DNA of 64,000 nucleotides, taken from sequence record MT150133.1; one strand, written 5' to 3'. Shown here piece by piece: positions 40,054-43,206 of the stretch. The stretch comes from Enterobacteria phage vB_EcoM_IME540. The position numbers and the translations under genes are program-made. The notes beneath the pieces were generated by a model that did no database searches, was not told the DNA's origin, and worked only from the letters and a program-made list of their open reading frames with translations. Each line of letters begins with the position of its first letter. Position 1 is the stretch's first letter.

Positions 40054-42216
40054 ATGATTAACAAATTGGAACTTAGTGAGTTACCATTTGTTGACGGCGT
40101 ACCTGATGCTCCTCAAAAGCGTATCCAATGGATACGCGAGGGTGATTGTATGTCTGCAGCAAAAACAAAATACGGCAATGAAGGTAATTTGAACGCTGCT
40201 GCTTTAGGAGTTCAGAAAAACGTTGAAGCTCTTGATGCGAATGATTTGAAAACAGCAGATAAAGTTAACGAACTGGTAGAAAACGTTAATAATATCAATG
40301 ATGCCTTAGAAATGGCTACTGATATTTCCGTCATCCAGCAAATTGAGAAAAACCGTGTTGATATCGTGGACCTTAAAAAGGTTACTTCAGAAACAACAGG
40401 AAAATTGGATGAGTTAACCACCAATTTTGATTACTTGCGTGAAGACGTTGGTTACCATGACCCTTTACAAGACGGCCCATATTTAACTGTACGTGAAAAT
40501 ATTGTTCTTCTTAAAACCGAAATAGGTCATTATGAAAACCAGGATATAAATGGCAATCCATTGCCTCCGGGTGAAACCAATGAAGCCACTGGTATGAAAC
40601 GTCGCATCATTGATAATACCACTCAATTGGTCGACCATCGTCTTCGCATTGATACCCTTGAAAGGAATTATGAAGATTCTGACGTCGGGCAACTAGGTAT
40701 TAAATTAAATGAAATTCGTGCTGAACTTGGCCCTCATTCTGATACTGTAGGTAAACAACCGGCTTATACCCGAATTTCTGTATTAGAAACGGCTGCAATT
40801 AATTTCAATACATCTATCGACGAAATTAAGACTAATATTGATTTCTCCGGTATGCCTATAAAGGACCGAGTAACTACTTTAGAAAGCAAAACTCTTACCC
40901 TAGAAAATTCAGTCAACGTTGATTTAAAACCTCGTGTAACATCAATTGAAACCCAAATAGGATCCGAATCAACTCCTACTTCTATTAATGGGCGTTTGAG
41001 CGGTCTTCGCACCGATGTAAATGACCTTAAAACCATAGTAGGTGTTAGTTCAAGTGATGGCTTACGTTTCCAAGTTACTGATATCAACCGCCGTTTAGGT
41101 GGTGAAGTATCTCCGGCAGCTGGGACCATTAATAAGCGTTTAAATGACGTTATTATCCAAGCAAACCAATCTACTTCATCTATCCAGGATATTCAAGTAG
41201 AAATTGGAAATAACCAATCCGGTATTAAGGGTACTTTACTTAAACTCACCAATAAGGTTGACGGGACAAACCCTAACGGTGCTACTGTAGAAGAACGTGG
41301 TCTTATTAACGCGGTTACTTCTTTAGAAACCCAGATGTTAGGTAAGTTGAATGATGCCCCTTCCGATGGTAAACTTTATGCTCGTCGTAATGCTACATGG
41401 ACCGAAGTTCCTAACGTTTCTACTGAAATAGAATCTGTTAAGGATGATTTAGTTGTTACCGATGGTAAAGTGGCAGCTTTAACTTCTAGAGTCGATGGTA
41501 ATGATACCTCAATTTCTTCTCTTGATACTCGCACCGGTGCATTAAACACTTCGGTTGGTGAGATTAAAGCAGATATCGTTACTATAAAGGCTAAAGACCT
41601 TGAACAGGACAGTCGTTTAACAGCACTTGAATCTAGTGATGTTACTGTTAATGGAAAAATAACGGCACTTGAATCTAAAACCGATACCACCGATTCTGAT
41701 GTTACCGCTTTGGCCTTAGATGTGAGTTCTATAGAATCACAATTAATTCCTATTAAAGCTGATATAACTAAGAACAAAGGCGATATAGTTACTTTAACCG
41801 GACGAGTAGCTGCTAATGAAGGTGAAATTGCCGATATTAAATTAGACACCGCTAAAATAGCTCCTTTGGCTACTCGAGTCACTACTGCTGAAGGTAAAAT
41901 TACCACCTTAGAAACAGGTTTGGCAGCAGTTAAAGTTGAATCCGATAAAGTTGCAGGAATCAATACCCGTTTAGGTACGGTAGAAGGTAAAGTTGGTACT
42001 CTTGAAACAGGTTTAGCAGCGGTTAAAGTTGAATCTGATAAAGTTGCTGATTTAGGAACCCGTTTAACTGCGGCTGAAGGTAAAATCACTGCACTAGAAA
42101 CTGAGTTGGCCAAACGCCCTCCTGTTGCTCCTGTTGCTGATGGACTTCCATATGTTCTTGTTGATAATGCGTGGGTGCTATTGTCAGATTTTGTGACTTT
42201 AAACCCAGCACCATAA
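40054..42216 (+). CDS. wac: fibritin (whisker antigen control), extended
   Basis: 720 aa coiled-coil; N-terminus ELSELPFVDGVPDA; C-terminal foldon-like ...DGLPYVLVDNAWVLLSDFV; internal 93-bp tandem repeat. Confidence 0.88.
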   Translation: MINKLELSELPFVDGVPDAPQKRIQWIREGDCMSAAKTKYGNEGNLNAAALGVQKNVEALDANDLKTADKVNELVENVNNINDALEMATDISVIQQIEKNRVDIVDLKKVTSETTGKLDELTTNFDYLREDVGYHDPLQDGPYLTVRENIVLLKTEIGHYENQDINGNPLPPGETNEATGMKRRIIDNTTQLVDHRLRIDTLERNYEDSDVGQLGIKLNEIRAELGPHSDTVGKQPAYTRISVLETAAINFNTSIDEIKTNIDFSGMPIKDRVTTLESKTLTLENSVNVDLKPRVTSIETQIGSESTPTSINGRLSGLRTDVNDLKTIVGVSSSDGLRFQVTDINRRLGGEVSPAAGTINKRLNDVIIQANQSTSSIQDIQVEIGNNQSGIKGTLLKLTNKVDGTNPNGATVEERGLINAVTSLETQMLGKLNDAPSDGKLYARRNATWTEVPNVSTEIESVKDDLVVTDGKVAALTSRVDGNDTSISSLDTRTGALNTSVGEIKADIVTIKAKDLEQDSRLTALESSDVTVNGKITALESKTDTTDSDVTALALDVSSIESQLIPIKADITKNKGDIVTLTGRVAANEGEIADIKLDTAKIAPLATRVTTAEGKITTLETGLAAVKVESDKVAGINTRLGTVEGKVGTLETGLAAVKVESDKVADLGTRLTAAEGKITALETELAKRPPVAPVADGLPYVLVDNAWVLLSDFVTLNPAP
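41890..42110 (+). repeat. in-frame 93-bp tandem repeat (~2.4 units) inside wac
   Basis: GAAGGTAAA(A/G)T... units start at 41890, 41983 and 42076; encode repeated TLETGLAAVKVESDKVA segments. Confidence 0.7.
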
Positions 42217-42239
42217 TAAAAGGGCTTCGGCCCTTTTTT
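42217..42239 (+). terminator. intrinsic terminator after wac
   Basis: GGGC-TTCG-GCCC followed by TTTTTT. Confidence 0.6.
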
Positions 42240-42241
42240 GC

Positions 42242-42249
42242 TATAAATA
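42242..42249 (+). promoter_or_regulatory. late promoter (TATAAATA) for gene 13
   Basis: Exact TATAAATA 22 nt upstream of ATG. Confidence 0.6.
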
Positions 42250-42270
42250 CGGTTATTAGAGGAATAAACC

Positions 42271-43206
42271 ATGGCAAGTGAATCATATAACCCTAAGCAA
42301 CTCAAGGACGCAATCCTGCGCCGCCTGGGTGCACCGATTACGAATATTGAAGTAACTACAGACCAAGTATACGATTGCATCCAGCGCGCCCTGGAGCTCT
42401 ACGGTGAGTATCATTATAACGGCTATAACAAAGGTTATCAGGCTTTTTATATAGGCCATGATGACGAAGAAAAATTCCGTAACGGCGTATTTGACCTTAA
42501 AGGCCGTAATATATTTGCGGTAACACAAATTTTAAGAACTAATGTAGGTTCTTTAACATCTATGGATGGCCAAGCGACTTATCCATGGTTTACTGATTTT
42601 GTATTAGGCCTAGCTGGTATTAATGGCGGTCTTGGAACTTCTTGTAACAGCTTTGGGCCTAATGCCTTTGGTGCTGACCTCGGGTATTTTACACAATTAA
42701 TGCAATATCGTTCTATGATGCAGGACCTTTTGGTTCCATTGCCTGATTATTGGTATAACGATGCCACTGAACAGTTGAAGGTAATGGGTAACTTTGTTAA
42801 AGGCGATTTTATTGTAATTGAAGTTTATACTCGCTCTTTTAATGGGGTCGATTCTATGGTAGGAAATACCGCAGGATATGGATATGCCTCTGGTGGGTGC
42901 GACGAAAATGAATGGAGCCCCGGAGCTATTTGGGATAACCCGGCTCGTCGTATTTCAGGTATGAGGGCAGGTGAAGACCTTGGTTTGCAAGATGGTTCAT
43001 ATAATAACCGTTGGGTCAAAGATTATGCGACGGCATTGGTTAAAGAAGTCAATGGTAATATTTTGGCCAAACACCAAGGCATGCAACTTGCGGGTGGAAC
43101 CACTGTAGATGGTATTCGATTGATTGAAGAAGCTCGTTTAGAAAAAGAACGCCTTCGCGAAGAATTAGATTTACTCGACCCACCAACACCTATTTTAATT
43201 GGATAA
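42271..43206 (+). CDS. 13: gp13 neck protein
   Basis: 311 aa; synteny; TATAAATA upstream. Confidence 0.85.

Follow-up and report, generated by a model that had tools for sequence, protein, structure and literature searches.

The closest described relatives of the protein considered here are the fibritins of the JS98 type. In the passages of Letarov & Krisch (2013; PMC3797505) that deal with them, citing Latypov et al. (2007), each of these fibritins has a pair of T4-like foldon motifs, separated by a spacer that shows a coiled-coil pattern and differs in length between proteins. The same passages relate, from a biochemical report, that the JS98-type protein trimerises by itself, with no dedicated chaperone gene, and their authors leave open both whether all fibritin variants share the two roles of the T4 protein and whether some have additional functions (PMC3797505). 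Variable spacer length is mentioned in this part of the paper, which makes no mention of the 31-residue unit described below. Our literature search found nothing on Dhakavirus fibritin by name, and two-foldon fibritins were described in Letarov & Krisch (2013) only. The architecture is thus already known, since it is published for the JS98 type and the gene itself is annotated, and the new detail is minor.

We analysed a stretch of 64,000 nucleotides from Enterobacteria phage vB_EcoM_IME540 (record MT150133.1), referred to below as the window. One of its open reading frames very probably encodes a Dhakavirus fibritin of the known JS98-type layout, in which the 233 residues present in excess of T4 Wac correspond to a distal module of spacer and foldon.

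Results

The wac gene occupies positions 40054..42216 of the window (+ strand) and encodes a JS98-type fibritin, or neck whisker protein, of 720 residues plus stop. Its frame begins with ATG, ends at a single stop and is open throughout. The original prediction had named the gene as wac, and this identity is borne out by matches to PHROG 1056 (fibritin; E 1.2e-194 over aa 1-604), to Pfam PF07921 (Fibritin_C; 95.9 bits over aa 371-454, gathering cut-off 21) and to T4 Wac itself, with 35% identity over aa 7-449 (443 residues; BLASTP, E 4e-84). The PDB fibritin chains 2bsg and 3j2o were matched by phmmer at E ~2e-74, and the NCBI fibritin of vB_EcoM_IME540 (cluster P0005), labelled 'fibritin neck whiskers protein', is the same over all 720 residues. 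With 720 residues against 487, the protein exceeds T4 Wac by 233, in agreement with an initial estimate of about 230. The surroundings are also those of T4: the upstream ORF corresponds to PHROG 910 (tail collar fibre) and is gp12-like, the downstream ORF corresponds to PHROG 211 (head-tail adaptor Ad2) and is gp13-like, and the order 12 – wac – 13 matches. The 54 bp gap between wac and gene 13 contains no additional ORF, which agrees with trimerisation that needs no dedicated chaperone; it holds only a terminator-like hairpin, GGGCTTCGGCCC with a T-run (42221..42239, +), read from the sequence directly after the TAATAA stops, and a T4-type late promoter, TATAAATA (42242..42249, +), located upstream of gene 13 by pattern search and reading of the sequence.

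The T4 and window proteins were compared by MAFFT alignment and BLASTP. The whole of T4 Wac, including its foldon, aligns to aa 1-453 of the window protein, such that W476 of T4 corresponds to W449. At the N-terminus, matches (phmmer) of the fibritin N-terminal constructs PDB 1ox3 and 2ibl to aa 6-68 point to a neck-attachment domain (~aa 1-68; 40054..40257, +), whose invariant columns in an alignment of 58 sequences include P17, Q21, R23, W26, T38, G44 and N47. The shaft that follows (~aa 69-428; 40258..41337, +) is colinear with T4 Wac 66-431. When AF2 was supplied with the alignment, it predicted a series of loop-broken helices for this region (45-88, 91-132, 146-157, 180-225 and onward to 417-428), consistent with a segmented α-helical coiled-coil shaft. 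Overall, the T4-like part lacks ~27 residues relative to T4, and a gap right before the foldon accounts for 26 of them.

As in JS98-type fibritins, two T4-like foldon motifs are present, recognised by alignment and predicted as hairpins by AF2. Foldon 1 is internal (aa 429-453, LGKLNDAPSDGKLYARRNATWTEVP; 41338..41412, +); T4 foldon residues 457-477 align with it in both MAFFT and BLASTP, and the Fibritin_C match ends there. In the alignment-based monomer model it folds as a β-hairpin (442-445/448-451, pLDDT ~57-66), so that foldon 1 would be a β-hairpin motif standing at the place of the T4 C-terminus, although the T4 foldon has a WVLLSTFL tail where foldon 1 has TWTEVPN. Across 58 fibritins, conservation reaches 90% or more at A435, P436, D438, Y442 and W449 and is complete at R444, and the motif keeps the same position, aa 429-453, in 16/16 long-spacer Dhakavirus genes. 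Foldon 2, the terminal core (aa 696-714, DGLPYVLVDNAWVLLSDFV; 42139..42195, +), is preceded by a Pro-rich linker, KRPPVAPVA (aa 687-695; 42112..42138, +), which every Dhakavirus and Gaprivervirus sequence compared retains and which AF2 predicts to be non-helical. For foldon 2, a secondary BLASTP alignment ends on the T4 foldon (E 3e-8), the last 52 residues of the protein match PDB 1avy, fibritin M (E 0.0027), together with many foldon-tagged constructs, and AF2 with the alignment predicts a hairpin (700-703/706-709) and a short helix (710-712). We also considered whether the T4 foldon joins the first half of foldon 1 to the second half of foldon 2, the product expected from one deletion between them. 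A visual count gave its first half about as many matches to foldon 1 as to foldon 2 (7 and 8 of 16 positions, respectively), which speaks neither for nor against such a chimera.

The 720-residue AF2 monomer model is an extended single chain (pTM 0.22) in which both foldon hairpins have modest pLDDT (~57-70). With a single sequence as input (aa 395-720), the spacer was helical at pLDDT 70-94 and the foldons were returned as helix or coil at pLDDT <50. A foldon-like C-terminus had been predicted to be retained; such a motif is indeed present at aa 696-714, and its role in trimerisation would be that of the T4 foldon, but a second motif, at aa 429-453 and within the Fibritin_C match, had been missed.

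It could be argued that foldon 1 is a non-functional relic of a duplication, forming a loop or kink, that the terminal foldon alone nucleates trimers and that the spacer is neutral, length-tolerant filler. The lack of the C-terminal hydrophobic WVLLSTFL segment, the change of the turn DG to DT or DN in Gaprivervirus and the modest AF2 confidence at foldon 1 would agree with this, and a spacer that varies from ~36 to ~325 residues without a matching change in the tail-fibre proteins fits weak constraint on the distal part. Against it, the foldon 1 signature is at least 90% conserved or invariant in the 58 fibritins, internal cases included, the motif is fixed in every long-spacer Dhakavirus gene, and it is kept even beside unrelated C-terminal domains in a class of 593-aa proteins. 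Since this conservation, fixed position and retention form the pattern of purifying selection and not that of a relic, we consider a relic unlikely.

The region between the foldons, together with the linker (aa 454-695), has no counterpart in T4 Wac. Its non-repeated part (aa 454-610; 41413..41883, +) is a predicted coiled-coil spacer: in a heptad scan, windows with starts at aa 440-592 share one register, with a brief exception at 509-513, and AF2 places helices at 456-593 and, after a break at 594-598, at 599-686. Both the coiled-coil pattern, from heptad scan and model, and the variable length of this region suggest a spacer of the JS98 type. At its distal end sits a tandem repeat array of 93 bp (31 residues) units (41884..42108, +), detected by Tandem Repeats Finder, HMM and a shuffle test. 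On the + strand it comprises unit 1 (aa 611-641; 41884-41976), unit 2 (aa 642-672; 41977-42069) and a partial unit 3 of 13 residues (aa 673-685; 42070-42108). Tandem Repeats Finder reported 41881-42101 with period 93, 2.4 copies, 73% matches and a score of 258. Units 1 and 2 are identical at 24/31 residues and 70/93 bases, which is far above chance because 200 shuffles gave at best 12 matching residues for a 31-residue self-match in the whole protein and 13 in the spacer alone. The in-frame repeat of 2.4 copies in the original prediction is therefore real, and the unit starts given for it (41890, 41983 and 42076) lie within the array at the correct spacing, the choice of phase in a tandem repeat being arbitrary. 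As 31 equals 4x7+3, each unit moves the heptad register by +3. At the textbook coiled-coil rise of 0.148 nm per residue, each unit of 31 residues would add ~4.6 nm if it adopted the canonical form, and the full spacer would measure ~34 nm if straight.

We then asked how much of the extension the repeat accounts for. An HMM of the 31-residue unit was significant on the array copies only (E 1e-24, 1e-22 and 1e-5); in a search of Wac for older, degenerate units it gave only non-significant traces, at aa 531-541 and 589-609 (E 0.017-0.03), so the spacer as a whole cannot be regarded as an expansion of this unit. These results bear on the proposal that the protein is a fibritin of the T4 type, with one foldon at its end and a shaft lengthened by ~230 residues through expansion of the 93-bp repeat. 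That the repeat is real, in frame and variable in copy number between isolates speaks for the proposal. However, two full units supply just 62 of the 233 extra residues and the whole array ~75, the unit HMM gives no other significant copies, and a unit-free form with the full spacer would still be ~170 residues longer than T4. Moreover, the T4-homologous part is ~27 residues shorter than that of T4, the remaining excess being unique spacer past the internal foldon, and even the unit-free QL01-type and C6-type proteins exceed T4 by 27-42 residues because they keep two foldons. Alignment with T4 rules out a single-foldon, repeat-expanded shaft, and we regard the proposal as highly improbable. 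The repeat does not lie in the T4-homologous shaft, where it had been placed, but in the distal spacer after the internal foldon, T4 Wac ending at aa 453. What holds of the predicted whisker lengthening is that copy number would alter fibre length; the source of the ~230 extra residues is a different one.

A second concern is that the repeat, or the entire extension, is an artefact of assembly or annotation, arising by expansion of the repeat or by fusion of two genes through a sequencing error. An assembly artefact had been named at the outset as what would refute the repeat, and tandem repeats carry a general risk in short-read assemblies, but we found no specific support for one here. An assembler could not mistake one unit for the other, since they differ at 23/93 bases (codon changes: 7 synonymous, 7 non-synonymous), and the reading frame runs without interruption into a conserved terminal foldon. 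In addition, the same two-unit, 720-residue layout recurs in ABTNLsp5, MX01, LHE83, ABTNLS3 and dhabil, which are independent genomes from various laboratories and countries, and in the metagenome clusters P0006 and P0017 (35 members). An artefact is scarcely credible in the face of these data, and the differences in wac length within Dhakavirus are real copy-number and deletion variants, not assembly errors.

Beyond the anatomy and homology of wac, its copy-number variation and mosaicism were also shown. Since a search with aa 430-720 gave four weak matches, with coiled-coil words saturating, relatives were taken from a search with aa 1-470. A comparison of repeat number among related isolates, suggested along with the original prediction, revealed that the 16 long-spacer genes of Dhakavirus carry 0-4 full units, with part-units of 14 or 17 and also 21 residues (0, 1, 2, 2+14 aa, 2+17 aa, 3, 3+17, 3+21 and 4+17). 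The number varies within each Dhakavirus clade, and nearest neighbours on a tree of the conserved part differ, QL01 having none, PSD2002 one and ABTNLS3 two. JS10 is an example with four. Because unit number differs between isolates, fibre length would change with it. The distance from the foldon 1 Trp to the foldon 2 DG ranges from 55 to 325 residues in the 16 long-spacer genes and is smaller in C6 and JS98-C3; within the genus, Wac spans 514-799 residues. The sizes of the tail-fibre proteins gp34, gp35 and gp36 did not follow Wac length in a comparison of two phages. Between the window protein and that of IME341, the shaft is 69% identical, the repeat 98% and foldon 2 93%. The far closer match of repeat and foldon 2 indicates recombination, by which the distal module has been exchanged between lineages.

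Other arrangements were seen among the fibritins collected. That of CHI14 has stacked foldons, and a class of 593 residues combines foldon 1 with unrelated C-terminal domains. Several JS98-type wac genes have been deposited under wrong names, namely 'hypothetical protein', 'phospholipase' or 'Zn-ribbon protein'.

Discussion

In the layout that we favour, the window protein would comprise, from N- to C-terminus, a neck-binding domain, a T4-like shaft, foldon 1, a spacer (aa 454-686), the Pro-rich linker and foldon 2. By analogy with T4, it would trimerise via its foldon motifs, help to attach the long tail fibres and hold them retracted, and its physical length would follow from the canonical coiled-coil rise. 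Slippage or unequal recombination between units probably alters their number, and recombination swaps entire distal modules between lineages, giving rise to proteins of such different length in one genus. The gene is an unremarkable representative of a fibritin type that has already been described, and the main value of the analysis lies in its correct annotation.

A further possibility is that the distal module of spacer and foldon 2 serves a separate purpose, additional to the roles known from T4, such as sensing of the environment or contact with the cell surface, the repeat number tuning its reach. Recurrent change of unit number within clades, swapping of the module between deep lineages and a module length that is uncoupled from gp34, gp35 and gp36 sizes (in two phages) are compatible with such a function, as is the amplification of other spacer segments (VR26, 3 x 24 aa) or the stacking of foldons (CHI14) in other lineages, and additional functions are left open in the relevant passages of the 2013 paper (PMC3797505). 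Nevertheless, a domain search of the spacer gave coiled-coil matches only and no recognisable binding domain, and the same patterns are equally expected from a weakly constrained, recombination-prone repeat. We therefore think an independent function quite unlikely. In a stricter form of the idea, which we judge to be very unlikely, the spacer and 31-residue array would be a fast-evolving, recombination-driven length cassette projecting a distal foldon head with a role absent from T4 whiskers (for example environmental or cell-surface contact), unit number being under diversifying selection and not drift; if this were true, the head would reach beyond the point where T4 whiskers end. The natural series of whiskers, with 0-4 units and foldon gaps of ~36-325 residues in near-isogenic backgrounds, can be used to probe the role of the distal half.

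Returning to the JS98-type layout as the preferred reading, the differences from known fibritins lie mainly in the distal part. T4 fibritin (NP_049771.1; PDB 1aa0, 1avy, 2bsg and 3j2o) is homologous in N-terminal domain, shaft, foldon and gene position, but it has 26 additional coiled-coil residues just before the foldon, missing in the window, and stops 11 residues past the foldon Trp, whereas the window protein runs 271 residues further through spacer, repeat and second foldon. The short two-foldon fibritins (Bp7/QL01 type, 529 aa; JS98-C3/C6, 514-515 aa; Gaprivervirus VR7/VR25, 528 aa) share with the window both foldons and the KRPPVAP linker, and their N-terminal 470 residues are up to 96% identical, but their spacer is cut to ~36-55 residues and has no 31-residue units. 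In QL01 a 191-residue deletion fuses ...LTSRV to TTAE..., and most of the non-repeated spacer is gone in QL01/Bp7-type genes. The fibritin of Gaprivervirus VR26 (722 aa) is a long two-foldon form with a spacer homologous to that of the window (56% identity over aa 431-718). It has no 31-residue units; instead, three 24-residue units of EGEITAIKLDTAKIAPL... are amplified, a segment that the window protein has only once, at aa 589-612. Gaprivervirus proteins also differ at foldon 1, where DT or DN replaces the turn DG. JS98 Wac (AAU29287.1, 751 aa; P0013) has two foldons and a coiled-coil spacer as in the window, shows 93% identity over aa 1-470 and is likewise encoded between genes 12 and 13; with three full 31-residue units where the window has two, it is 31 residues longer.

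The window wac gene encodes a JS98-type fibritin

The wac ORF (40054-42216, + strand) is intact and encodes 720 residues that are 100% identical over their full length to the NCBI fibritin entry of vB_EcoM_IME540. T4 Wac, foldon included, is colinear with window residues 1-453 (MAFFT and BLASTP). The T4 foldon segment aligns with GKLNDAPSDGKLYARRNATW, an internal motif at aa 429-453 (foldon 1), T4 W476 corresponding to window W449, and the match to the Pfam Fibritin_C model, of which the foldon is part, lies mid-protein (aa 371-454). Counted to the foldon 1 Trp, the protein has ~27 fewer residues than T4 Wac, a 26-aa gap immediately N-terminal to the foldon forming part of this shortfall. Past this Trp, 11 residues follow in T4 and 271 in the window protein. 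These 271 residues comprise a spacer (aa 454-686), the Pro-rich linker KRPPVAPVA and a terminal foldon 2, DGLPYVLVDNAWVLLSDFV (aa 696-714), together termed the distal module. Foldon 2 gives a secondary BLASTP alignment to the T4 foldon (E 3e-8) and has further matches to fibritin M (1avy) and to many PDB constructs that carry a foldon tag. The original prediction, that wac is about 230 residues longer than in T4 and retains a foldon-like C-terminus, was therefore borne out; the excess over the 487-aa T4 protein is 233.

The JS98 type of fibritin is defined by Letarov & Krisch (Ecol Evol 2013, PMC3797505) as having two T4-like foldon motifs; with reference to Latypov et al. 2007, they describe the spacer that separates these as variable in length and coiled-coil in pattern. 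JS98 Wac is 93% identical to the window protein over aa 1-470. The window wac is a known, annotated JS98-type fibritin. Elsewhere, JS98-type wac genes are misannotated as ‘phospholipase’ (ESCO10, OM386655.1) or ‘predicted nucleic acid-binding Zn-ribbon protein’ (a JGI record, protein cluster P0020), or labelled ‘hypothetical protein’ (OQ561750.1, LHE83; OK335775.1, PSD2002; OL770107.1, CLB_P2).

A gp12-like short-tail-fibre gene lies 9 bp upstream of wac and a gp13-like neck gene downstream. The tandem stops TAATAA (within 42214-42270) are directly followed by a hairpin, GGGCTTCGGCCC, with T6 (42221-42239), and by a T4-type late promoter, TATAAATA (42242-42249), 22 bp upstream of the gene 13 ATG. 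There are 20 occurrences of TATAAATA in the window against 7.6 expected, most of them on the + strand beyond 42 kb. Gene 13 is annotated as two CDS in the vB_EcoM_005 record (locus L010, 3469-4413), which is only 155 kb, probably reflecting a frameshift or assembly problem. An antisense ORF of 334 aa (41376-42380, − strand) covers the wac spacer and repeat and extends into the beginning of gene 13; rather than a gene, this is most probably a stop-free frame opposite a compositionally biased coiled-coil coding region.

The 93-bp repeat accounts for part of the extra length

Tandem Repeats Finder confirmed the predicted in-frame repeat (period 93 bp at 41881-42101, 2.4 copies, 73% matches). The array (41884-42108) consists of two complete 31-aa units (aa 611-641 and 642-672) and, at aa 673-685, the initial 13 residues of a third. 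The two complete units agree at 24 of 31 residues and 70 of 93 bases, compared with a top 31-residue self-match of 12-13 in shuffled controls (n=200). A search with an HMM of the unit gave no significant further copies beyond the array. Since 31 = 4×7+3, a +3 shift of the heptad register is expected for each unit, and a simple heptad scan showed this shift once per unit; for scan windows starting at aa 440-592 the register was constant, except for a short blip at 509-513. An assembly artefact as the source of the repeat was ruled out because the units differ at 23 of 93 bases and the two-unit arrangement recurs in independently sequenced genomes and metagenome clusters. Synonymous and non-synonymous codon changes between the two units are equal in number.

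Expansion of this repeat in the shaft had been proposed to lengthen the whiskers. This is partly right: unit number varies with Wac length, but the array lies in the distal spacer and its two complete units account for only 62 of the 233 extra residues (~75 for the whole array), the remainder being other distal module sequence.

Unit number and distal module vary among relatives

Comparison of 16 Dhakavirus wac genes from annotated genomes, the window included, revealed 0 to 4 complete units, with foldon 1 at aa 429-453 in every case. QL01 has none (Wac 529 aa), PSD2002 and dhaeg one (689 aa), and the window, ABTNLsp5, MX01, ABTNLS3 and dhabil two (720 aa). UP19 (734 aa) and vB_EcoM_005 (737 aa) have two plus 14 and 17 aa, respectively. 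Three units are present in JS98 and NC-G (751 aa), with a further 17 aa in VR5 (768 aa) and 21 aa in CLB_P2 (772 aa), and four plus 17 aa in JS10 and IME341 (799 aa). The 14-aa and 17-aa part-units are the two halves of one unit. In the QL01/Bp7 class, a deletion of 191 aa has also removed most of the unique spacer, bringing ...LTSRV next to TTAE....

In a neighbour-joining tree of wac codons 1-428, nearest neighbours differ in unit number (QL01 0, PSD2002 1 and ABTNLS3 2; dhaeg 1, dhabil 2 and CLB_P2 3+), and gain and loss of units are therefore recurrent. The nearest genome in the phage collection, Salmonella phage ABTNLsp5 (97.8% DNA identity), likewise has a 2163-bp wac. Region by region, DNA identity between the window and IME341 is mosaic: shaft 69%, foldon 1 61%, unique spacer 85%, repeat 98% and foldon 2 93%. 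Judged from sequence, the distal module has evidently been swapped between deep sublineages.

Predicted structure and distal length

For aa 395-720, single-sequence AF2 modelled the spacer confidently as helix (pLDDT 70-94) and was uninformative for both foldons. With an alignment of 58 fibritin sequences, AF2 predicted segmented helices along the T4-like shaft, a β-hairpin at foldon 1 (442-445/448-451), long spacer helices (456-593 and 599-686) and a foldon 2 hairpin (700-703/706-709) followed by a short helix, the pLDDT of the hairpins being modest (~57-70). In the same alignment, foldon 1 is strongly conserved: R444 does not vary (58/58), and A435, P436, D438, Y442 and W449 each show conservation of at least 90%. 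At the coiled-coil rise of ~0.148 nm per residue, the length contributed would be ~4.6 nm for each unit and ~34 nm for both spacer helices together.

This analysis established the domain order, homology, and copy-number and recombination dynamics of wac. Since the structure predictions come from a monomer model, we can only infer that the window Wac would form a trimer. The T4 and JS98 fibritins are described as trimerising via small foldon motifs without a chaperone, and by analogy with T4 the trimer would be anchored at the neck by its N-terminus, trimerisation would be nucleated by the foldon motifs, and the fibre would help long-tail-fibre attachment and keep the fibres retracted (PMC3797505).

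The Wac proteins of JS10 (locus L023, 799 aa) and QL01 (L024, 529 aa) differ by 270 aa, whereas gp35 (373 aa) and gp36 (215 aa) are equal in length, gp37 has 1103 and 1107 aa, and gp34 1322 and 1350 aa, respectively; in these two genomes distal length is thus unmatched to fibre geometry. This and the constant placement of foldon 1 suggest that T4-equivalent geometry stops at foldon 1, in which case the part beyond would be weakly constrained or serve another purpose.

Comparison with other fibritins

Using window aa 1-470 as query, we recovered 96 fibritin clusters. At least two foldon-like motifs are present in 31 of these (509-799 aa), including Gaprivervirus, Enterobacter phage CIP9, Yersinia phage P8 and others; the 720-aa form is among the common length classes. 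In clusters P0045-P0049 and P0051 (593 aa; e.g. Yersinia phage MHG19), a foldon-like motif is retained at ~aa 439, and an unrelated C-terminal region of ~150 aa follows it. The T4-position foldon appears to serve as a conserved landmark, with interchangeable add-ons downstream. Four consecutive foldon-like motifs occur in the fibritin of Serratia phage CHI14 (P0042, 584 aa) and three in the P0039 fibritin (550 aa), in a C-terminal stack with ~30-aa spacing and no intervening coiled coil, a ‘foldon array’ unlike the two-foldon spacer design.

The 31-aa unit is limited in this census to Dhakavirus-type spacers. The two-foldon fibritin of Gaprivervirus VR26 (an Escherichia phage; locus L022, 920-3088; 722 aa) carries another kind of spacer repeat, in which the 24-aa unit EGEITAIKLDTAKIAPLxxRVxxx occurs three times in tandem; this segment is found as a single copy in the window Wac (aa 589-612). 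Relative to the published JS98 type, the unit-level account of spacer polymorphism is a small addition.
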